Below, in pieces: positions 4,171 to 28,511 of a DNA stretch of 32,000 bases (the first letter of the stretch is position 1; the number at the start of each line of letters is the position of its first letter). The stretch spans positions 2,910,001 to 2,942,000 of the forward strand of contig NZ_LT934425.1 of the NCBI RefSeq assembly GCF_900232105.1, given 5' to 3'. Both the position numbers and the translations under genes were made by a program. The notes beneath the pieces are model-generated. The model saw only the letters and a program-made list of their open reading frames with translations. It had not been told where the DNA came from and did not search any database. Source of the DNA: Candidatus Kuenenia stuttgartensis (GTDB taxonomy: Bacteria; Planctomycetota; Brocadiia; Brocadiales; Brocadiaceae).

Positions 4171-6600
4171 ATGGGTAAGAGGAAATTAGGAGTGATAGCA
4201 TCGGCGTTTGTAGCGGGTGCGTTGGTCTGTGGGAGTACCCTTGTGAATGCTGAGCCTGTAATGACAGGCGGCCCGGTGCAGGGGAAGGCCTTATGGACTG
4301 ATTATAGTGGGATGTCAAAAGAGGTGCAGGGTCCTGTGAGTCAGATATTGTTTACGCAGTCGCCGAGGACAGCCAAAGGGGATCCGTACCAGAACTATCC
4401 GCACTATATACCGGAAGGAAGCCGGATAGTGTTATTTGATTTAAACACAAAGGAATTGAAGGTATTGACCAATGATTTTGCAACAGCCTTTGATCCATGC
4501 ACCTATTGGGACGGCAAGAAATTTGCGTTTGCCGGGGTACACAAGAAAGGCGGCGGGTGCCAGATATGGGAAATGAACATAGATGGCAGTGGTTTAAGGC
4601 AGATGACTGATCTTAAGGGAACCTGCCGTTCACCGATTTATTATGCAGCGGGAAGTATTGAAGAAGGCGAAGGCCGTATCATATGGCGTGACCGGTATTT
4701 TGAAGGGGACTGGAAAGAGCATGGCATGGTAGAGAAGACGGGCATGATAATATTTTCAGGTTCACCGGAAGGCGTAATGGATGAGTTCCACAATCCATAT
4801 GCGTATAATCTTTACCGTTTGGATACGCAGGGCGGTAAGATCATACAGAGAATCACCGGACACGTGCTATCTGGCATAGAGTTTCCGCACCTCAATACCA
4901 CGATAGACCAGATCACCTACAATTTAAGTTCCAACTTTGATCCATGGTTAACTCCTGACGGAAACATCCTTTTCTCAAGCGTGCAGGCAAATGGCAGCAG
5001 GGCTGGCGGAGAAGGCAGGGTGATGATTTGTGTGGACAACTGGGATGGTGCGTATCCAAGGCCTATCTATGGAAACTGTGATGGGGAAATCGGTGGCACC
5101 AGCGGAAGGTCTCAGGCGAAGATCACCTTTGGAGACAGGAAGATTGTCTATGTTGAGTCTCCGTACATGAATTGGGGCGTAGGTCAGTTGGCAGCGGTGA
5201 GCTGGGATGCTCCGTTCAACAAGACGTATGAGAAGTTGACAGGAAAAGATGGTGGATTGTACAGGAGTCCATATCCGCTTCCGGACGACAGGATGTTGGT
5301 ATCCTATGCAGAAAGAGGGGATTTTGGCATATACTGGTTTAATTTTAGCAAATGTGCTGCAGGGGACAAGGTATATGATGATCCTAACTGGAATGATCAC
5401 CAGCCTGCGCCGGTTTATGTGAAGTACAAGCCAAGGTGGATTAACACCTTTACCGCCGGTAAGAACTTTGGTGTAACGGTCGTAACGTATCAGCCGTTTG
5501 ATCAGGTGAAGGTGGAAGGATATCCGCATTCATGGGGAACATGGATATGCTTTGATACGACATTGTCGGATCAGCCTGTAGGTCCTTATCCGCATCAGAA
5601 GGCAAAAAACGTAAGCCATGGAGATATCAAGGCAGTAAGAATCATCCAGGGATATCAGTGTGTAGAACCGGATTCAACCCGTTTCAGGGTAGGAGCTGGA
5701 GCACATCTTCTTGGTGGAGAGAGATCAAGCAGCAATTCAGGTACAGCATTTCAGCAGAGGGGTATCATCGGGTATCAATATGTAGAGAGCGATGGTTCAA
5801 CAGTTACATCCCAGCTTTCAGATGTTCCTTATTACATGCAGATATTGGATGATAAGGGTATGTCTGTACAGACTGCTTTAACCTGGGCATATTTGAGGCC
5901 ATATCATGGCAGGATTTGTAGTGGATGTCACTATGGATCATATCGTGGAAGGGCGTTCAAGAACATCCATGCAAAGGCGTTGTACAACTGGTGGTATGAT
6001 GACAGAAGCCACTATGATTCACCATTTGCGTTCAGGTATTTGAAGTTTGACAACGATGGGAATTACAAGGGCGTAAAACATGGAGAGGATGTAGTAGTAC
6101 CATCTGACATTTACTATGGTGGTCCATCCGGAACGACATCACAGCCGGTGGAAGGATTGACGCTGGATAAGCAGAGGACGGTGGATTTCCGCAGGGACAT
6201 TCAGCCGATACTTGATGCGAAGTGTGCGATGTGTCATGATTCGAACAATCCTCCGAACCTTGGTGGCGGATTGGAATTGGTAAGTGTAGATGGTATAGCA
6301 GCATACAGTCGTGCATACAACAGCTTGCTTGAGCCGCAGAGGGGGAAAGACCCGAACATTGGCGGAAAATATGTTAATCCGTCAGCAGCGATCAACAGTT
6401 TGTTGGTATGGAGGTTGTATGAAGCTGAGTTAAGCGCGAATGCTCCCAGGGAGAAGATATTCCCGATAGAGGGTCGTTTATTGCACAATAAATTCCTTAC
6501 TCAGGATGAGAGATATGCGATAGTAGAGTGGATAGACCTGGGTGCGCAGTGGGATAACATTCCGGGACCAGATTTTTATCCTGGATATCTTGTAAAATAA
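4171..6600 (+). CDS. hzsA: Hydrazine synthase alpha subunit (propeller plus two c-type heme sites)
   Basis: 809 aa with SD AAGGAGA at 4154-4160 and signal peptide MGKRKLGVIASAFVAGALVCGSTLVNA. CXXCH at 5917-5931 (CSGCH, codons 583-587, followed by YGSY) and at 6223-6237 (CAMCH, codons 685-689). Size, order and heme count match HZS-alpha. Confidence 0.92.
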   Translation: MGKRKLGVIASAFVAGALVCGSTLVNAEPVMTGGPVQGKALWTDYSGMSKEVQGPVSQILFTQSPRTAKGDPYQNYPHYIPEGSRIVLFDLNTKELKVLTNDFATAFDPCTYWDGKKFAFAGVHKKGGGCQIWEMNIDGSGLRQMTDLKGTCRSPIYYAAGSIEEGEGRIIWRDRYFEGDWKEHGMVEKTGMIIFSGSPEGVMDEFHNPYAYNLYRLDTQGGKIIQRITGHVLSGIEFPHLNTTIDQITYNLSSNFDPWLTPDGNILFSSVQANGSRAGGEGRVMICVDNWDGAYPRPIYGNCDGEIGGTSGRSQAKITFGDRKIVYVESPYMNWGVGQLAAVSWDAPFNKTYEKLTGKDGGLYRSPYPLPDDRMLVSYAERGDFGIYWFNFSKCAAGDKVYDDPNWNDHQPAPVYVKYKPRWINTFTAGKNFGVTVVTYQPFDQVKVEGYPHSWGTWICFDTTLSDQPVGPYPHQKAKNVSHGDIKAVRIIQGYQCVEPDSTRFRVGAGAHLLGGERSSSNSGTAFQQRGIIGYQYVESDGSTVTSQLSDVPYYMQILDDKGMSVQTALTWAYLRPYHGRICSGCHYGSYRGRAFKNIHAKALYNWWYDDRSHYDSPFAFRYLKFDNDGNYKGVKHGEDVVVPSDIYYGGPSGTTSQPVEGLTLDKQRTVDFRRDIQPILDAKCAMCHDSNNPPNLGGGLELVSVDGIAAYSRAYNSLLEPQRGKDPNIGGKYVNPSAAINSLLVWRLYEAELSANAPREKIFPIEGRLLHNKFLTQDERYAIVEWIDLGAQWDNIPGPDFYPGYLVK

Positions 6601-20732: not shown

Positions 20733-21665
20733 CTGGAAGAAAATACTATTATTCCTCACACTCCTGATTTTTTACGGAAACTCTTTGCCAGAAAAGGCAT
20801 CGTTCTCAATAAAAAGTACGGGCAGCACATTCTTATTGACCAGAATATACTATCTTACATTGCCAATAGTGCTTCTTTGCAAAAAGACGATGTGGTATTG
20901 GAAATTGGGACGGGAACAGGAAGTTTGACAAGGTATCTGGCGGAAAAGGCGTGTCATGTATTCACGGTGGAAATCGACAACAAACTCTTCGATTTATCCT
21001 CGGAGATTCTCAAATTTTACAAAAACATTACTATTATTAACGCCGACATATTACAATCCAAACACAAACTCAATGCGGAAATCGTTACGGTGATATCCGG
21101 CTGGCTTGCAACAAATAATCATACTGCCTTCAAAGTAGTTTCCAACCTTCCCTATAACATCAGCACCCCTGTTATTATTAATCTTTTGGAAAGTAATCTG
21201 CCAATCAGCCTTATGGTACTGATGTTACAAAAAGAAATTACCGAACGTTTGACAGCCGCTTCAGGCTCCAGGGAATATGGAATCCTCTCTGTTATTACGC
21301 AACTGTTTTCGGAAGTTGAACTCATGAAAACATTGCCGCCGGAAGTATTCTGGCCAAGGCCGGAAGTATCTTCCTCTATCGTAAAAATGTCTGTTCACCG
21401 GGCAAAATATGCAAACAAAATAACAGATTATCCATTTTTTATAAAAATCATTTATGCCATATTTACGTCAAGACGCAAAACACTGCTGAACAGTATTGAA
21501 AAATTGAAACTGCCAGGCGTTTCAAGAAGTGAATTGAAACTAATACTTGCTGCCATGCAGTTGAACGAAAACATTCGGGGAGAAATGTTAGATCCGGAAC
21601 AATTAATCCATTTAACAGAGTCTCTCTTTCTGGCAATATCCCGCGCTAATACACTTACCTTTTGA
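20733..21665 (+). CDS. rsmA: 16S rRNA (adenine1518/1519-N6)-dimethyltransferase; start inferred at CTG
   Basis: VLEIGTGTGSLT SAM motif and NLPYNIS. The conserved N-terminal KKYGQHILID lies upstream of the first ATG/GTG/TTG (20877) but in the same open frame (stop at 20718-20720). AAGAGGA (20719-20725) sits 7 nt before CTG 20733. Confidence 0.8.
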   Translation: MEENTIIPHTPDFLRKLFARKGIVLNKKYGQHILIDQNILSYIANSASLQKDDVVLEIGTGTGSLTRYLAEKACHVFTVEIDNKLFDLSSEILKFYKNITIINADILQSKHKLNAEIVTVISGWLATNNHTAFKVVSNLPYNISTPVIINLLESNLPISLMVLMLQKEITERLTAASGSREYGILSVITQLFSEVELMKTLPPEVFWPRPEVSSSIVKMSVHRAKYANKITDYPFFIKIIYAIFTSRRKTLLNSIEKLKLPGVSRSELKLILAAMQLNENIRGEMLDPEQLIHLTESLFLAISRANTLTF

Positions 21666-21696
21666 AATGTGTCGCTAAAAACAAATATCTCGTACG

Positions 21697-21731
21697 AAAA
21701 AAGGGACAGGTTTAAAACCTGTCCCTTTTTT
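21697..21731. terminator. Bidirectional rho-independent terminator (rsmA / hsp20 convergent)
   Basis: AAAAAA-GGGACAGG-tttaaaa-CCTGTCCC-TTTTTT, a perfect 8-bp GC-rich stem flanked by an A-tract and a T-tract. Confidence 0.8.
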
Positions 21732-21849
21732 CGGCAAGTATACATCTTTAAGCAGTATTACAAATCCTTAACCCCAGTGCCTCTAAACCTTTTCTACACA
21801 TCAAGTGTGGAAAATTTGTTTTTGTGAGTTGTCAAATGCAAAATGTACT

Positions 21850-22296
21850 TTAACTGACTTTTACAGAGATCTGCTTCGGACGTACCTCTTCTTTTTTCGG
21901 AAGCGTAATTTCAAGAACGCCATTTTTGCACTCTGCGTTTACTTTATCCATGTCTACAGAAGCGGGAAGCTCTACGGAACGGGAGAATCTGCCATAGCTC
22001 CTTTCCATACGGTAATAGTTTTTCCCCTTTTCTTCCTTTTCTTCTTTTTTCTCTCCCTTTATGATTAAATTATTATCTTGTATTGAAATGTTAACCTCTT
22101 TTGGGTCAATACCGGGAATCTCCGCTTTTACGACAATGTTGTCATCCGTCTCTGAAAGGTCGATGCTAGGAGACCACGCTCCGGCTTCCTGGCCGAACCC
22201 TGAAAAGTCCCAACCCCTAAAGAACTGGTCAAACATGCGGTTTATCTCGTTCTGAAGAGATGATACATTCGTCCACTTCATTAAATCCTTAGCCAT
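21850..22296 (-). CDS. Small heat-shock protein, Hsp20/alpha-crystallin family
   Basis: WSPSIDLSETDDNIVVKAEIPG...ERSYGRFSRSVELP...A.CKNGVLEITLPK is a canonical ACD. Confidence 0.9.
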   Translation of the reverse strand: MAKDLMKWTNVSSLQNEINRMFDQFFRGWDFSGFGQEAGAWSPSIDLSETDDNIVVKAEIPGIDPKEVNISIQDNNLIIKGEKKEEKEEKGKNYYRMERSYGRFSRSVELPASVDMDKVNAECKNGVLEITLPKKEEVRPKQISVKVS

Positions 22297-22349
22297 AGAA
22301 TATCCCCTATAAAAAAAACCAATAAAGTAAAATTACTACTGGTACTTTG

Positions 22350-22365
22350 AGCAATATTCGTGCCT
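22350..22365 (-). promoter_or_regulatory. Sigma-54 (-24/-12) promoter candidate for hsp20
   Basis: The minus strand reads AGGCAC-GAATA-TTGCT, against the consensus TGGCAC-N5-TTGCW. GG and GC have correct spacing. Lies about 55 nt upstream of the hsp20 ATG. Confidence 0.5.
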
Positions 22366-22454
22366 AATAGTATGGTTGGGAGAGCGGCAGATATAAGTCT
22401 TTTGAAAATCACGCATTGCGAATCAGGTTATACTTTAGCTGACCTAAATATATG

Positions 22455-22469
22455 CTGCCATATTGGCAG
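22455..22469. promoter_or_regulatory. Perfect palindrome CTGCCA-TAT-TGGCAG, candidate enhancer-binding-protein site
   Basis: Lies about 95 bp upstream of the -24 element, a typical UAS distance. Confidence 0.3.
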
Positions 22470-22575
22470 TAGATTTGATATCCTCACCTGTCCTGCGTAA
22501 AAGATTTCCTGTTACTTCATTATTTTATTCTTACGTCCTAGACAAAAATTGGCATGGCATTAACCATGACAAGGT

Positions 22576-23156
22576 TGTTCTTTCATCTGAAATAAAAATG
22601 GAGCTATAAATATTATAAGAGCTGTGGGTTTTTATTTTAAACAAAATTTGTAAGGACAGACGGTAAACATCCGCCCGATACTTCTTACTACTTACCTCGT
22701 ACAACGTGTATAACCAGTAGGTCTAACGCAACAAGGTTAGCCGTTCCTACGACAACCATAATGCGTATGGGCTGGTCCCAGTTTCTCCAAAAGTTCCTCA
22801 TCCGTATATGTCTCTATTTTTGGTGCTTCGTATTTTTGCAGTTTGTTTTCTACCATTATACACCTCTTTCGGGGTTAAATTTTAAACACCTTATTCCCAT
22901 TTGATTAAACATGTGCCTTGCCACAAACAAGTACCCATGGGTGGGTTTGTTTTGCGGTTTTTTACCCACAGCTCTTTTTTAATTCACCGATAAAAAATTT
23001 ATGTTATGTCGTTTTTCTCCAACACTACATGCTCTTCTTTATGGCCGCACACTACAATTCTTATTGTCTACTATTTATTAAATTTGTCAATACCTGCAAA
23101 TGGGGGTATCCATTTGGATATCTGTTTTTCAAAGCGCTGTTTTGTTTTTACGTAAG
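22576..23156. repeat. Copy 1 of the ~580-bp intergenic repeat (part of a 982-bp tandem duplication)
   Basis: Aligns by eye with 24885-25464 over its full length, with scattered substitutions and small indels. Confidence 0.9.
22737..22856 (-). CDS. 39-codon sORF, copy 1 (MVENKLQKYEAPKIETYTDEELLEKLGPAHTHYGCRRNG)
   Basis: ATG preceded by AAAGAGGTG. The ORF is intact in both repeat copies, and the last 25 codons are identical at nucleotide level. Confidence 0.45.
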   Translation of the reverse strand: MVENKLQKYEAPKIETYTDEELLEKLGPAHTHYGCRRNG

Positions 23157-24479
23157 GAGTTGTCAGATAATAACTTTTACAACTATGGCGCGGGATAACA
23201 AGGTGTGAATGACTCAATTTTTTGAAATTGTATAATTCCAATCTCAATGGAAATTATGCTTTCCAATATTAATCTTTTCCATTTCCTGATCGGAAACCTT
23301 TATCCCTGTTGGATATTTCCTTTTGTCAATTTTAACTACAACCTTCAATCCGGTTTTTGTTTTTGTTGCGCCAATTAAATTAACCATAACATCATGGCTG
23401 GTCAGCGGATGGCCTTTCCAATTCATGCTAATATGAGAAAAAAGTCTATGTTCAATTTTGTTCCATTTACTTGTTCCTTTAGGAAAATGGCATACTGTAA
23501 TTTCCATGCCTGATTTATTTGCAAATTCTTGTAGTTTGATTTTCCACAGGCGAACTCTATAGCCGTCACTGCCACCACTATCTGCACATATCAACAGCTT
23601 TTTTGCATCAGGATAAATCTTTCTTCCCATATAAGTCCACCACCTATGAATGCTTTGTACTGCAAAATCTGAGGTATCATGATCGCATCCGACATTGATC
23701 CAACCTAAATTTTTACCCTGATCATAGATGCCATAGGGGATGCCTATTTCTTTTCCTTTGGGATCAGGGAAATCTCGACCATTAACTTTTCGGGGAGAAC
23801 CTTTTTTCCGCCATTCCTGCCCTTTGTTTGCATAGTTTCCCAGCAATTCCTTCTTTTTAGTGGCAACAGAAATGACAGGAAAATTGTCTTTTAAAAACTT
23901 TTTTACTTGCATAGTGATATACTTGAATTGTGCATCACGATCAGGATGAGAATCTTCCAAAGATTTATCATTACCTTGAAGACTATACCCAAGTTGTTTA
24001 AGAATGACTCGAATTGTTTCGTAAGAAACTTCATATCCTTTTTTATAAAGCTCCTCGGATAAATGACGCGTACTTTTAGAGGTCCATTTCAGTGGAGACA
24101 TTGGGTCCCCTCGGGTAGAATCTTCAATTAACGACTCAATTGTTTTTAATAATTTTTTGTTTTGAGCATGTTTGGGTTTAGGGTCGCCACCAGAAACTCT
24201 CACACTCTCACTGGCATTATTCCCTCCACTCTCTAAATCAGATATCCCCTGATGGATAGTAGGCCTGGATACGCCTGCAAGTCTTGCGATTTTAGAAATT
24301 CCACCATAGCCAATAGATTTTGCTTCTGCCCCTAAAAAGATTCTCTTTTGTCTTTCATTTAAAAAGGGTAAAATATCATTGATTTTTTCTTTAAGTTTTT
24401 CGGTAGACATAAAAACTTTTTAGCCGATTCCAGAATATATTTCAATCCAAAGTTGTACATGTTATTATCTGACTGCCCC
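23157..24479 (-). mobile_element. ISAzo13-family insertion sequence (1323 bp)
   Basis: Imperfect terminal inverted repeats share GTCAGATAATAAC (23157-... and the reverse complement of ...-24479). Flanked by TAAG (23153-23156 and 24480-24483). An uninterrupted paralogous site gTAAGacc lies at 25460-25467. Confidence 0.85.
23244..24410 (-). CDS. ISAzo13-family (Rhodopirellula-type DDE) transposase
   Basis: 388 aa. N-terminal LNERQKRIFLGAEAKSIGYGGISKIARLAGVSRPTI HTH. C-terminal WNKIEHRLFSHIS motif. Confidence 0.9.
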   Translation of the reverse strand: MSTEKLKEKINDILPFLNERQKRIFLGAEAKSIGYGGISKIARLAGVSRPTIHQGISDLESGGNNASESVRVSGGDPKPKHAQNKKLLKTIESLIEDSTRGDPMSPLKWTSKSTRHLSEELYKKGYEVSYETIRVILKQLGYSLQGNDKSLEDSHPDRDAQFKYITMQVKKFLKDNFPVISVATKKKELLGNYANKGQEWRKKGSPRKVNGRDFPDPKGKEIGIPYGIYDQGKNLGWINVGCDHDTSDFAVQSIHRWWTYMGRKIYPDAKKLLICADSGGSDGYRVRLWKIKLQEFANKSGMEITVCHFPKGTSKWNKIEHRLFSHISMNWKGHPLTSHDVMVNLIGATKTKTGLKVVVKIDKRKYPTGIKVSDQEMEKINIGKHNFH

Positions 24480-24546
24480 TAAGACCTTAACCTGGAAATG
24501 CACCCTTTGTTATTCAATCGCAAATTGCGAGCCTCCAAAGTATGAT

Positions 24547-24885
24547 TCATAAATCTCGCAGGGACTCCACGGTGTTCATGCGTGATGCGCGAAATGCAGG
24601 CAGTATGCCCCCAAGAAATCCCATAAGGAGCGCAAATGCCATTGCCTTGAGAAAGATTCCATGACTAAGCCTGAAGCGGAAGGCGAGTTCTGAAAATGTC
24701 TGGGAATTGGTTGTCGATACACTGATAAATTGCAGCACGGAAGCAAAAGACAATCCGGTACATCCCCCTAAAAAACCAAGAATAAACGATTCCAAAAGAA
24801 ATGCCATAAGGATGTTTACCCTGCCAAAACCCAACGCACGCAATGTGCTAATTTCTGAAGTGCGGTTTGCGACTGCCGCGTACAT
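24547..24885 (-). pseudogene. Duplicated 3' fragment of the FtsX/MacB-type permease gene
   Basis: The 112 aa are nearly identical to the C-terminus of 25528..26694 (AVANRTSEI.TLRALGF...ILPAFRASRMN.VESLR). Similarity stops at the duplication junction (about 24884). Confidence 0.85.
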
Positions 24886-25464
24886 GTTCTTTCATCTGAA
24901 ATAAAAATGGTGCTATAAATATTATAAGAGCTGTGGGTCTTTATTTTAAACAAAATTTGTAAGGACAGACGGTAAACATCCGCCCGATACTTCTTACTAC
25001 TTACCTCGTACAACGTGTATAACCAGTAGGTCTAACGCAACAAGGTTAGCCGTTCCTACGACAACCATAATGCGTATGGGCTGGTCCCAGTTTCTCCAAA
25101 AGTTCCTCATCCGTATATGTTTCTATTTTTGGTGCTTCGTATTTATGCAAATTGTTTTCTACCATTCTACACCTCCTTCGGGGTTAAATTTTAAACACCT
25201 TCTTCCCATTTGATTAAACATGTGCCTTGCCATAAACAAATACCCATGGGCGGGTTTGTTTTGCGGCTTTTGCCCACAGCTCTTTTTTAATTCACCGCTA
25301 AAAATTTATGCTATGTCGTTTTTCTCCAACACAACATGCTTTTCTTCAGGAGGGCACATTACGACATCTATTATTTACTATTTATTAAATTTGTCAATAC
25401 ACGCAAACGGGGGTATCCATTTGGAGATATGTTTTTCAAAGCGATGTTTTGTTTTTTTTGTAAG
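24885..25464. repeat. Copy 2 of the ~580-bp intergenic repeat
   Basis: See copy 1. Confidence 0.9.
25046..25165 (-). CDS. 39-codon sORF, copy 2 (MVENNLHKYEAPKIETYTDEELLEKLGPAHTHYGCRRNG)
   Basis: ATG preceded by AAGGAGGTG with a 5-nt spacer. Lies directly downstream of the ABC transporter operon on the same strand. Confidence 0.5.
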   Translation of the reverse strand: MVENNLHKYEAPKIETYTDEELLEKLGPAHTHYGCRRNG

Positions 25465-25527
25465 ACCTAAACCTGGGAATATGCCATTTGTTATTCAATC
25501 ACAAATTGCGGGCTGTCAAAGTATGAT

Positions 25528-26694
25528 TCATACCTCTCTCAGGGACTCCACTATGTTCATGCGTGATGCGCGAAATGCAGGCAGTATGCCGCCGAAAAAT
25601 CCCATAAGGAGCGCAAATGCCATTGCCTTGAGAATGATTCCCGGACTAAGCCTGAAGCGGAAGGCGAGTTCTGAAAATGTCTGAAAATTGGTTGTAGATA
25701 CACTGATAAACTGCAGCACGGAAGCAAAAAACAATCCGGTACATCCCCCTAAAAAACCAAGAATAATCGATTCCAACAGAAACGCCAGAAGGATATTCAC
25801 CCTGCTAAAACCAAGCGCACGCAATGTGCCTATTTCTGAAGTGCGGTTCGCTACTGCCGAGTACATGGTAACCATTGCGCCAATTACCGCCCCGATTGAA
25901 AATATCGCGGTAAGTGAAATACCCAATATTCTTAAAAACTTTGCCATCATCTCGGACTGTTTTTTGTAATAATCTACTTCAATCATCGCATCAAAGGTCA
26001 ACCGCGGATCGTTTTCAATACGGCGTTGTAATTTCTGCAAGGAAGCATCGTCCTCCGCGCGAAAAATAAGGGATGAATATGCGTTTCTTCGAAAAGCCTG
26101 CATAAACTGATCGGCGTCTCCCCATATTTCAGAACTGAACCCGGTATCGCCCGCGTCAAAAATCCCCACAACCTTCCATGGCCTCATTGCAAAAAATATC
26201 GAATCGCCCAACCCTGCATTTTTAAACCGTTTTGCCACGCTATTCCCTGTCATTATTTCTGATGTTCCCATAAGAGGCAGCCTGCCCGCCGAAAGTTTTA
26301 CCTGAGGCCGCATATCAACGGAGGCATTGCCAATCCCACGGATAACAACATTTGCAGAACTGCTGCTTCCTTTTTTTTGAAGAGTAATTAAAACCACCAG
26401 TTCTTTTGCAAACATTCTGCGCCCGTTTTCATCCAATGCCACTTCCGGCTGCGTTTCAATAATAGACGCCTGATATCTTTCGATGATGCTTTGCACCTCT
26501 GTAGACGAGGACTTTCTAAGCACAACGATATTATTGTATGACCCTGTTTCGATAAGGGTTTTTTGCAGTCCTTCGGCGAGCATAATAATTGCGGCAAAGA
26601 CGAATACAACCAGCGCCATGCCTGATGCAGTTAGCGCGGTAGTCACCCGGCGGGTCAATAAATTCCGAAAACTATAAAAAAAAAGGAGTCTCAT
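25528..26694 (-). CDS. ABC transporter permease, MacB/FtsX (LolC/E-like) family
   Basis: N-terminal TM, large periplasmic domain, C-terminal FtsX 3-TM bundle. Start abuts the stop of the upstream permease. Confidence 0.85.
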   Translation of the reverse strand: MRLLFFYSFRNLLTRRVTTALTASGMALVVFVFAAIIMLAEGLQKTLIETGSYNNIVVLRKSSSTEVQSIIERYQASIIETQPEVALDENGRRMFAKELVVLITLQKKGSSSSANVVIRGIGNASVDMRPQVKLSAGRLPLMGTSEIMTGNSVAKRFKNAGLGDSIFFAMRPWKVVGIFDAGDTGFSSEIWGDADQFMQAFRRNAYSSLIFRAEDDASLQKLQRRIENDPRLTFDAMIEVDYYKKQSEMMAKFLRILGISLTAIFSIGAVIGAMVTMYSAVANRTSEIGTLRALGFSRVNILLAFLLESIILGFLGGCTGLFFASVLQFISVSTTNFQTFSELAFRFRLSPGIILKAMAFALLMGFFGGILPAFRASRMNIVESLREV

Positions 26695-26695
26695 C

Positions 26696-27850
26696 TCACC
26701 CTATCTTTCTCAGCCCTTCGGATATTCGCACACTCATTGCCCTCCATGCAGGAAGTATGCCGGCAGATAGACCTACGATTATGATAACAACCGCATCCAT
26801 AAAAATAGTTTTTCCGGTGATATTAAATACCGGGAAATAAGTCCCTACGGCATTTGAAAATGCGATAGCCGCCGGATATGTTGCAGATATGCCCAGTATC
26901 CCTCCGATTAGCGTAATCATCATAGACTCTCCAATGATAAGCGCAGCAATATATCCGCCTGAAAAACCTATGGTTTTAAATATCGCATACTCCGCAGTGC
27001 GTTCACGTACAGACATTACCATCGTGTTTGCGACAACGATGAGAATAATCACAATAATCACAAACGAAACCAGTTGAACCGCTTTAAGGATGGCTTCGCT
27101 CATGGCAACAAATCCGAGTTGAAATGCCTTTTCAGTTTCGGTAAGCGTTTCCGCCAGTGAATTTTTAAACATAGCATCAATAGCCTCTGCAATGCCGGCA
27201 GCGTTTTCAGGTCTATCGATGCCAATAATATAAAATCCTACATTATCCGCTGAAAAGGGTCTCACCTTTTTCATTGTTTCATTAAAATAATCCCAATGGA
27301 AGAAGAACATGGTCTCGTCCACATTTTTATGTTTCCCTTCATAAACGGCGCTTAAGACAAATTCCCATTTCCCGGGGTAAATGGCACTGACCAATGTAAT
27401 ACTATCCCCAACTGCCCACCCAAATCTGTCGGCCAATTTCTTCCCAACAAGGCAGCCTTTTCTGTTTTTAAGAAACGATGTCGTTTCATTTTCAGGTATT
27501 TTGTATTCGGGATAGAGTTTAAGATATGAGGTGGGTTCCACGGCGAAGTTTGCGAAAAAGTCTTTTTCATCTTTATAATATCCGCCAAACCAATTGCCAT
27601 AGGAAACTATTTTGACGCCATCGGCAGAGCGGATTTTTTCGCGATAGGAAAGCGGTAGACGGAAAACAAGTGATATTGAATTCCTCGTGACCAGCCGGTT
27701 TGCAGATGAAGCTGCAACCCCGGCATACCATGCGTCAATTACAGTGTGAAGTAATCCATAGGCTAACACGGCGATTGCTATGCCCGCTATGGTTAAAACA
27801 CTGCGGAGTTTATGCCTGAAGGCGTTACGAATGAGAATCTTGATCATCAT
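26696..27850 (-). CDS. ABC transporter permease, MacB/FtsX (LolC/E-like) family
   Basis: Same architecture as above. Overlaps the ATPase gene by 26 nt. Confidence 0.85.
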   Translation of the reverse strand: MMIKILIRNAFRHKLRSVLTIAGIAIAVLAYGLLHTVIDAWYAGVAASSANRLVTRNSISLVFRLPLSYREKIRSADGVKIVSYGNWFGGYYKDEKDFFANFAVEPTSYLKLYPEYKIPENETTSFLKNRKGCLVGKKLADRFGWAVGDSITLVSAIYPGKWEFVLSAVYEGKHKNVDETMFFFHWDYFNETMKKVRPFSADNVGFYIIGIDRPENAAGIAEAIDAMFKNSLAETLTETEKAFQLGFVAMSEAILKAVQLVSFVIIVIILIVVANTMVMSVRERTAEYAIFKTIGFSGGYIAALIIGESMMITLIGGILGISATYPAAIAFSNAVGTYFPVFNITGKTIFMDAVVIIIVGLSAGILPAWRAMSVRISEGLRKIG

Positions 27851-28511
27851 TGCTCAAAACTCCCTTGTCAAGATGCTTCATGCTATGCGCCCTGTTTCCC
27901 GCCCAGGGATCATGGGTTACCACGATAATGGTTTTCCCCATATCCTTGTTTAAACGATCCATAAGCTCAAGCACTATTTCCGCAGAAACCCTGTCCAGGT
28001 CTCCGGTCGGTTCATCGGCGACAAGTATCGCCGGGTCTGTTACTATTGCCCTCGCAATCGCAACCCTCTGTTGTTGTCCTCCGGATAGTTGGGAAGGATA
28101 ATGCCACAGCCGGTCTTCCATATTTACGGCTTTTAAAGCGGTATACACATGTTCTTTTCGTTCTCTGCCGGAAAGGCTGGTGAGGATAAGGGGCAATTCA
28201 ACATTTTCATATGCCGTAAGAACTGGAATGAGATTGTAAAACTGGAAGATAAACCCCACATTAGTAGCACGCCACCGCGCGAGTTCGGATTCTGATAATA
28301 TGGCGATATCTATGCCGTCCACTTCTATCGAACCGGCGTCTGCACGATCAAGTCCGGCAATAAGGTTCAGGAGCGTGCTTTTCCCCGAACCTGAAGGCCC
28401 CATAAGCGCTAAATATTCGCCTTGTCCGATATTCAGGGAAATGTCTTTTAATACACTTATTACCTCGTTTCCCCTCTTATAGGTTTTTGTCACATTTTGA
28501 ATAGATACCAT
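27825..28511 (-). CDS. ABC transporter ATP-binding protein (LolD/MacB-type)
   Basis: Walker A GPSGSGKST, signature LSGGQQQRVAIARA, Walker B ILVADEPT, H-loop VTHD. Confidence 0.9.
   Translation of the reverse strand: MVSIQNVTKTYKRGNEVISVLKDISLNIGQGEYLALMGPSGSGKSTLLNLIAGLDRADAGSIEVDGIDIAILSESELARWRATNVGFIFQFYNLIPVLTAYENVELPLILTSLSGRERKEHVYTALKAVNMEDRLWHYPSQLSGGQQQRVAIARAIVTDPAILVADEPTGDLDRVSAEIVLELMDRLNKDMGKTIIVVTHDPWAGNRAHSMKHLDKGVLSNDDQDSHS

Follow-up and report, generated by a model that had tools for sequence, protein, structure and literature searches.

The window analysed in this study, a 32,000-nucleotide stretch of the Candidatus Kuenenia stuttgartensis genome (contig NZ_LT934425.1, positions 2,910,001 to 2,942,000), contains two small open reading frames (sORFs) on the reverse strand, here termed copy A and copy B, which were originally suggested, as no more than a hypothesis, to encode the precursor of a peptide made on ribosomes and modified after translation (RiPP). 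Direct reading of both copies confirmed two frames of 39 codons with the sequence and at the positions that had been reported (Table 1). Just upstream, on the same strand, an ATPase and two FtsX-type permeases were found where an ATP-binding cassette (ABC) exporter of the MacB/FtsX type had been proposed, and, as had also been stated, no maturation enzyme is encoded in the window. The strong Shine-Dalgarno sequence described for copy B was present, with a spacer of 4 nt rather than the 5 nt claimed. The TTGACA-N16-AATAAT element reported upstream was likewise present; it scored 11/12, was the best promoter-like match of the region and is kept in the corresponding units of the sister species. 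Promoter-like sites were not enriched in the region overall (13 found versus 9.8 expected).

The two sORFs lie in a tandem duplication with units of 982 and 986 nt, one of which carries an ISAzo13 insertion. The copies differ at four nucleotides, in codons 5, 6, 7 and 15 and hence within the first 15 codons as reported, two of the changes being synonymous and two non-synonymous; codons 16-39 are identical. The original prediction had taken the identity of the last 25 codons as evidence for a gene. Between the units, identity was 96.7% in the ORF, compared with 90.9% in the permease 3' end, 83.5% in the spacer and 87.9% in the 5' untranslated region (UTR), but 98.8% in the 161-nt 3' flank. Although conservation of the sORF exceeds that of most of the unit, the near-identical tract reaches ~160 nt beyond the stop codon, and because of this the identity of the copies is not ORF specific and proves nothing alone; it could represent a gene conversion tract. 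The dN/dS comparison of the two copies that had been suggested was carried out and, with two changes of each kind, was uninformative; a family-wide analysis was used instead.

A translated search of the 4.4-Mb K. stuttgartensis genome identified a third paralog, divergent at the DNA level, at positions 928,863-928,943, with 81% identity over residues 7-33. Homologs with a conserved frame, which the original prediction had proposed to look for in anammox and planctomycete genomes, were found in 29 of 89 genomes of the order, representing 12 of its 27 genera with up to nine copies per genome, and every match at an E value of ≤0.001 across these 89 genomes lay in an open frame. Among the family copies, 46 unique nucleotide versions were obtained. 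Each starts at a Met located 8-10 residues before the motif Tyr, and a GGAG-type ribosome-binding site is found at the usual distance in all of them. For 45 leader segments, the ratio of non-synonymous to synonymous differences per site (pN/pS) was 0.21 in the ORF frame, compared with 0.97 and 2.47 in the shifted frames. Since the sequences were gathered via a protein motif, pN is lowered by construction, and the informative part of this result is that synonymous sites are near saturation (pS of 0.79) while the motif persists. Variable sites across the 20-codon leader core of the same segments were distributed 12/10/20 over the three codon positions, with every third position varying. Because of these comparative data, namely the spread of the family, the GGAG sites and the leader pN/pS, it is nearly certain, as far as sequence comparison can establish it, that the sORFs are translated genes with a leader under purifying selection.

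The family is large and unannotated. A search of public protein data, with the 43-amino-acid paralog as the first query, returned 526 clusters at 90% identity and 315 clusters at 50% identity, that is, more than 500 distinct variants, and all named clusters were entered as "hypothetical protein" of Candidatus Kuenenia, Candidatus Brocadia, Brocadiaceae or Planctomycetota. When 299 Planctomycetota genomes were sampled, six of nine Brocadiaceae and only two other genomes carried the family. Scans of the peptides against Pfam and NCBIfam gave no match at E values of ≤10, and comparison of the peptide profile with PDB sequences gave no related chain, the only matches being spurious ones to pentatricopeptide repeats. 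A search of the literature on anammox or Kuenenia RiPPs found nothing relevant.

The aligned family has the consensus M-E-x-K-K-L-P-x-Y-E-x-P-x-[VI]-x-T-Y-T-D-E-E-[IL]-x-E-x-L-G-P-A-[QH]-T, followed by a hypervariable tail of ~5-13 residues. Position -3 from this junction is Ala in 226 of 243 members, and position -1, the final leader residue, is Thr or Ala in 234. Small residues at -3 and -1 are the pattern preferred by signal peptidases. On the other side of the junction, position 2 of the core is Tyr, Ser or Thr in 181 of the 243 members, and a hydroxyl residue falls somewhere within core positions 1-3 in 226. Among the 14 short-core members of the genus, leader identity was 83% and core identity 27%, in keeping with the proposal that the short Cys-containing tail is the core; the Tyr at core position 2 is the sole invariant core residue of this group. 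Strain variants were found with the same leader and very different tails (HYGCRRNG, SYGCTRNSV and GYNSCPYYKP), and many remote family members have Cys-rich tails. The Y-x-x-P-x-[IL]-type leader that had been noted in the window copies is conserved and under purifying selection across genera.

The 3' UTR of the window copies contains, in frame past the TAA stop codon, a stretch whose last eight residues, T-G-Y-T-R-C-T-R, are homologous to the live core of a sister species (G045), TGYARCTR-stop. Because this relic aligns with a live core, we interpret it as an older core that was displaced from the frame by an insertion or duplication of ~50 nt, and the alignment indicates that the tails evolve through insertion at the junction.

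The ORFs around ~30 family loci were then clustered, and representatives were scanned. A PqqD-family protein of ~90 amino acids was encoded at 11 of the loci, including a locus at 0.92 Mb of the K. stuttgartensis genome and the metagenome contig L077, with PF05402 scores of 39-44 bits against a cutoff of 23.4. PqqD-like RRE (RiPP recognition element) genes therefore do stand beside family members, consistent with the predicted RRE-recognised leader; the radical-SAM genes for which a check had also been suggested were found at none of the ~30 loci. An HprK-like kinase of 380 amino acids was present at 10 loci. A profile built from 10 orthologs of this kinase matched only HPr kinase/phosphorylases (HprK/P) among PDB sequences, and its AlphaFold model (predicted local distance difference test score [pLDDT] of 81, predicted template modelling score [pTM] of 0.73) had as its only significant fold relatives in the PDB the ATP-dependent phosphoenolpyruvate carboxykinases (PEPCK) and HprK/P. 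Kinase orthologs occurred in 15 genomes of the order, all 15 of which also contained the peptide, and within one genus with gain or loss of the system the presence or absence of peptide and kinase agreed in 13 of 14 genomes; these genomes are related and not independent samples, and the counts therefore carry no P value.

A signal peptidase I of the archaeal/SipW type (TIGR02228, 78.4 bits against a cutoff of 51.85), the best PDB relatives of which were SEC11A/C, was encoded at seven family loci, and an S24/S26 peptidase was encoded in L077. A nucleotidyltransferase of family PF14907 was found at L025, L045 and L050 as well as in L077. Seven loci also encode a C25/PorU-like peptidase of 1,090 amino acids, matched by NF033707 with an E value of 3e-84, below the cutoff of that model. 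In L077, the PqqD-family protein, peptide, kinase, S24/S26 peptidase and PF14907 protein are encoded in a single operon without a C25 peptidase or radical-SAM gene. The nearest solved relative of the anammox PqqD profile was LppB (PDB entry 9X8Z, E value of 1.7e-4), ahead of the lasso B1 proteins and of PqqD. Two LppB residues, N33, which fixes the leader Pro, and D70, which hydrogen bonds to the leader Tyr, aligned with the invariant N36 and D74 of the anammox proteins.

A leader with a YxxPx[IL] motif, a PqqD/B1-like partner and a Thr near the leader end would also fit the precursor of a lasso peptide. Both the kinase and the nucleotidyltransferase are known lasso tailoring enzymes, and the phosphorylated or phosphoglycosylated lasso peptides (paeninodin, pseudomycoidin and Bsf type) share with the anammox system a YxxP leader read by a discrete B1/PqqD protein. 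However, neither an Asn-synthetase-like macrolactam cyclase nor a B2 peptidase was found at any of the ~30 family loci. In the K. stuttgartensis genome, paralog 3 is separated by 24 kb from the nearest PF00733 gene, and the only PF13471 gene, at 4.1876 Mb, belongs to another cluster. The core HYGCRRNG, with eight residues, is too short for a lasso peptide, has no Asp or Glu acceptor, which lasso cores carry at position 7-9, and does not begin with Gly, Ala, Ser or Cys. Because of the missing cyclase and B2 peptidase and the lack of an acidic core residue, a lasso precursor was rejected as extremely improbable.

The original prediction had offered as an equal alternative a small protein with a regulatory or stress function, encoded upstream of hsp20. 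More generally, the sORF product could be an unmodified and unprocessed small protein, either such a factor or a small partner of PqqD. Copy A does lie upstream of hsp20, and this arrangement recurs in one sister species, but hsp20 adjacency was confined to the window locus and its ortholog, and most family members are located elsewhere. A conserved leader, a hypervariable tail and an A-x-T junction, strictly linked to genes for PqqD, kinase and peptidase, form the pattern of a RiPP, and last eight residues that are only 27% identical among close relatives are hard to fit to a folded regulator. We therefore consider an unmodified protein very unlikely.

The absence of maturation enzymes from the window is explained by their location elsewhere in the genome. 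Between 0.922 and 0.930 Mb, genes for the PqqD-family protein, SipW-like peptidase, C25 peptidase and HprK-like kinase are found together with paralog 3 and the sole gene for a cargo protein with an Fn3-like tail (see below), whereas the window (2.91-2.94 Mb) contains short-core peptides and ABC genes only. In the congeneric G043, a single contig contains within ~25 kb the genes for a MacA-like adaptor, the ATPase, both permeases, two short-core peptides, the PqqD-family protein, the SipW-like and C25 peptidases and the kinase, and further peptide-cargo pairs as well. The ABC genes adjoin short-core peptides in all four species of the genus, consistent with the proposed export of the product by the adjacent transporter. 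In sister species the ABC operon is headed by the adaptor gene, whose ortholog in K. stuttgartensis (77% identity) is located at positions 1,192,440-1,193,651. Because the genes are contiguous in G043 and scattered in K. stuttgartensis, the window locus is, on the evidence of gene order, a piece of a cluster broken up by rearrangement in an insertion sequence (IS)-rich genome.

Such a history raises the question of whether the window copies are stranded, dead orphans left by the rearrangement and intact only through recent duplication or gene conversion. Their enzymes are 2 Mb away, the adaptor gene has been displaced, the locus is full of IS and miniature inverted-repeat transposable element (MITE) insertions, and the near-identity of the ORF and its 3' flank could be a conversion tract. 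Against this, the start codon, ribosome-binding site, promoter-like element and frame are kept in both copies, while the permease fragment and 5' UTR that were duplicated with them have diverged by 9-16%. Orthologous short-core copies are moreover intact in all four species of the genus, as are strain variants with identical leaders and different cores. Dead copies thus appear highly unlikely.

The precursors and genes described above resemble those of the linear polyphosphorylated peptides (LPP) of Bacillota (LppA/B/K/S/N/D; Popov et al., Nat Commun 2026; PMC13381572). The LPP precursors have a YxxPxV... leader (full consensus, YxxPxVLxHQxIxFETxxS) and variable C termini; cleavage of the leader follows Thr(-1), and the core is polyphosphorylated at Ser3 (PMC13381572). 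The defining features of LPP include a PF14907-type NTP transferase (LppN) and an MsbA-like pump (LppD), and the system was stated to be restricted to Bacillota, with its role unknown (PMC13381572). The anammox precursors are similarly linked to a discrete PqqD-type RRE, whose nearest solved relative is LppB with the Tyr- and Pro-holding residues conserved, to an HprK-like kinase and to a SipW-like peptidase. They too combine a conserved YxxPx[VI] leader with variable C termini, have Thr at what is predicted to be position -1, have a hydroxyl residue right at the beginning of the core, lack a macrolactam cyclase and are encoded in cell envelope loci.

The leader, the hypervariable tail, the linked RRE, kinase and peptidase genes and the conserved adjacency to an exporter support the RiPP hypothesis as a whole. 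We consider it probable that the sORF products are precursors, that the PqqD-family protein binds them, that the kinase modifies them, that the SipW-like peptidase cleaves them behind Thr31 and that the adjacent ABC transporter exports them. They would then be orphan LPP-like precursors beside a probable exporter and a planctomycete counterpart of the LPP of Bacillota. Judging from homology, the discrete RRE of the PqqD family would be the docking site of leader residues 9-14 (Y-E-A-P-K-I). The analogy with LppK and the gene linkage suggest that the HprK/PEPCK-fold kinase would phosphorylate a hydroxyl residue where the core begins, for which the candidate acceptor is Tyr33, the invariant Tyr at core position 2; the choice of this Tyr is the weakest step of the proposed pathway. 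The archaeal-type signal peptidase I would cut after Ala29-His30-Thr31, following the family-wide A-x-T/A rule, to free the 8-residue peptide HYGCRRNG, and the MacB-type transporter, from its adjacency in the four species, would export the product. The window would correspond to the "precursor plus exporter" half of the cluster, with its two copies arising from the 982-bp tandem duplication.

Several observations weigh against this assignment. The kinase scored under the curated cutoffs (TIGR04352, 59-60 bits against 200; PF07475, 21-24 bits against 33.3). The 0.92-Mb locus has no PF14907 gene, and the single such gene of the genome, at 4.187 Mb, is part of another cluster. The anammox leader, YExPx[VI]xTYTDEE[IL].E.LG.A.T, coincides with that of LPP only in YxxPx[VI], the hydrophobic residue at -10 and Thr at -1, and the distance from the Tyr to the cut site is 23 residues as against 16 in LPP. 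Whereas the LPP acceptor is Ser3, the candidate here is in most cases the Tyr at position 2, and LppK failed to phosphorylate an S3Y variant (PMC13381572). With the maturation genes 2 Mb from the window and none inside it, action in trans has to be assumed. The exporter operon of the window lacks its first gene locally, the adaptor being encoded 1.7 Mb away, and the exporter may be impaired. Finally, an LPP-like pathway does not account for the conserved C25 peptidase or for the Fn3-tailed secreted proteins encoded before most family members.

The anammox system differs from LPP in other respects as well. The anammox genes belong to Planctomycetota rather than Bacillota, and the cores have 5-13 residues compared with ~45. 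The linked exporter is of the MacB type, with a separate ATPase, two FtsX permeases and, in the sister species, a MacA-like adaptor, in place of an MsbA-like pump. The loci contain an additional C25/PorU-like peptidase. The precursor genes are multicopy and dispersed, usually directly following genes for secreted proteins with an Fn3-like tail, and in K. stuttgartensis the precursors and exporter are apart from the enzymes. The system is a variant form of a recently described kind and not a categorically new one.

The K. stuttgartensis genome also contains a second RiPP-like cluster, at C1:4,186,000-4,193,300 (L060). It comprises a 58-amino-acid precursor-like ORF with FAEPKL/FVEPKL motifs, a 328-amino-acid HprK-like protein, an IS-type insert, a radical-SAM/SPASM enzyme, a PqqD-family protein, a transglutaminase-like PF13471 protein and a PF14907 nucleotidyltransferase.

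The sORF products could accordingly be RiPP precursors that are matured by a different enzyme set, either by this radical-SAM cluster at 4.186-4.193 Mb, giving a Cys-derived thioether, or with the C25 peptidase replacing the SipW-like enzyme as leader peptidase or transpeptidase. The cores in the window contain Cys, as do the Cys-rich tails of remote members, a second RRE-containing cluster with a radical-SAM enzyme is available in the same genome, and the C25 peptidase is conserved at seven family loci. Yet the 4.19-Mb cluster has a precursor-like ORF of its own with another leader, no radical-SAM gene accompanies the family at the ~30 loci, and the leaders in the window are 81% identical to that of the paralog beside the kinase/SipW set. 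L077, moreover, has the full kinase/peptidase set and neither a C25 peptidase nor a radical-SAM enzyme. Maturation by other enzymes is for these reasons unlikely, and the kinase/SipW pathway remains our preferred assignment.

In 17 loci, the gene directly upstream of the peptide gene encodes a secreted protein that ends in a particular domain of ~100 residues, and nearly all long-core family members lie directly downstream of such a gene. This C-terminal domain had no Pfam match, and a fold search returned only generic Fn3-like relatives and was uninformative. K. stuttgartensis has a single instance of the domain, upstream of paralog 3. The gene at L006 11093-12055(-) and ~20 orthologous genes encode secreted proteins of 196-999 amino acids that are alike only in their last ~100 residues, an Fn3-like beta-sandwich often followed by a short Arg/Lys tail. 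Almost all of these genes have a peptide gene of the family directly behind them.

A PorU-like C25 peptidase encoded beside secreted proteins with a common beta-sandwich C-terminal domain of ~100 residues is reminiscent of PorU, the sortase of the type IX secretion system (T9SS). The link of the peptide to these proteins is positional only, and no other T9SS genes were seen, no search having been aimed at them. On this basis the peptide might act as a partner in the tagging or anchoring of surface proteins, or as an exported, strain-specific signal in anammox aggregates, roles which we put forward only as doubtful suggestions. If tagging were to take place, the kinase and signal peptidase module would yield a phosphorylated, perhaps glycosylated, peptide with a new N terminus that is usually Gly, and the C25 sortase-like enzyme would remove the C-terminal domain of the cargo and then ligate the peptide to the cargo C terminus.

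LPP was defined only in 2026 and thought to be confined to Bacillota. To it the family adds a large, unannotated LPP-like branch, with over 500 different precursors, in the anammox bacteria, a group that matters greatly for nitrogen cycling and for the treatment of wastewater. The branch is unusual in its minimal, strain-variable cores of 5-13 residues, in that the likely modification site is an invariant Tyr where LPP has Ser, in the extra PorU-like peptidase and in the fixed association with a class of secreted proteins. The peptides HYGCRRNG and GYVNGGNILG, with or without phosphate, provide short synthetic targets for a mass spectrometric search in Kuenenia, and a four-gene set is defined for reconstitution. 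Precursors can evidently be located megabases from their enzymes, and genome mining that relies on clusters misses such genes.

Table 1. Features of the sORF locus and linked genes of K. stuttgartensis (window coordinates unless marked as genome coordinates)
Feature	Position	Strand	Remarks
sORF copy B, 39-aa precursor peptide	25046..25165	-	Basis: ORF read, paralogs, family comparison
Copy B, predicted leader	25073-25165	-	Residues 1-31
Copy B, predicted core HYGCRRNG	25049-25072	-	
Copy B, stop codon	25046-25048	-	
sORF copy A, 39 codons	22737..22856	-	Core as in copy B; only residue differences N5K and H7Q, in leader
Shine-Dalgarno sequence of copy B, AAGGAGGTG	25170..25178	-	4 nt before ATG
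Shine-Dalgarno sequence of copy A, AAAGAGGTG	22861-22869	-	
Sigma-70-like promoter element of copy B, TTGACA-N16-AATAAT	25370..25397	-	Sequence match; putative function
Promoter-like counterpart of copy A, TTGACA-N16-GACAAT	23063-23090	-	
Candidate terminator of sORF transcript	24963..24985	-	9-bp hairpin, then U-rich stretch; 3' UTR
Relic of older core, P-C-C-V-R-P-T-G-Y-T-R-C-T-R-stop	25001..25045	-	In frame past TAA, 3' UTR; copy A, 22692-22736
Inverted repeat, upstream arm AAGAGCTGTGGG	25273..25284		12 bp, perfect; copy A, 22965-22976
Inverted repeat, downstream arm CCCACAGCTCTT	24926..24937		Copy A, 22617-22628
Tandem duplication unit 1	24885..25866	-	Permease 3' end and intergenic segment with copy B
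Tandem duplication unit 2	22576..24884	-	Permease fragment (24547-24885), ISAzo13, intergenic segment with copy A
ISAzo13 element	~23157-24479		Inside unit 2; transposase ORF 23244-24410, 388 aa
FtsX-type permease b, 388 aa	25528..26694	-	Last gene before copy B
FtsX-type permease a, 384 aa	26696..27850	-	
ABC ATPase, LolD/DarD/MacB type	27825..28511	-	
PqqD-family RRE gene	922,572-922,847 (genome)		
SipW-like signal peptidase I	~923,030-923,638 (genome)		
HprK/PEPCK-fold kinase	927,220-928,359 (genome)		Paralog 3 directly upstream

Within the duplicated region, the 388-amino-acid ORF in unit 2 was considered as a third permease and rejected, as it is the ISAzo13 transposase. Nothing was detected in the repeat unit by an Rfam scan of positions 21500-26000. 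We also rejected a mobile element spread through the genome, since the genome has only two occurrences of the 572-nt unit and only four of the inverted-repeat 12-mer arm.

In all four species of the genus, each short-core sORF unit is flanked by the 12-bp inverted repeat AAGAGCTGTGGG/CCCACAGCTCTT. The intervening sequence is divergent, and the genome has no further occurrence of the 12-mer. In G043, the pair of arms also occurs as a simple 12-bp hairpin immediately behind the permease gene (L035, positions 4616-4656). The repeat could be an RNA processing stem, a terminator stem or a cassette boundary; since the arms are invariant, covariation is uninformative.

Some family members depart from the common architecture. 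In a sub-branch from other Brocadiaceae genera (L022, L024, L026, L027, L029 and L053), the leader is shared up to E-E-[IL]-L-E-E-L and is followed by V-R-H-R... tails of 15-30 residues without the G-P-A-x-T junction; PqqD is the only partner of these members, with no kinase nearby. A metagenome protein of 372 amino acids (P0133) has seven tandem leader-like repeats (E-T-P-x-[IV]-T-T-Y-E-R-D-E-L...) and could be either a precursor of several units or a repeat protein that has been domesticated.

Two further hairpins are found in the sORF transcript region. The stem of the one in the 3' UTR is kept in the sister species with G-U to A-U changes, and we infer that it is a candidate terminator of the sORF transcript. 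The other, an 11-pair hairpin followed by a T-run (25308-25337, reverse strand), lies in the 5' UTR ~30 nt downstream of the promoter-like element. It is present also in copy A and in G045, and may be an attenuator or simply a structured leader.

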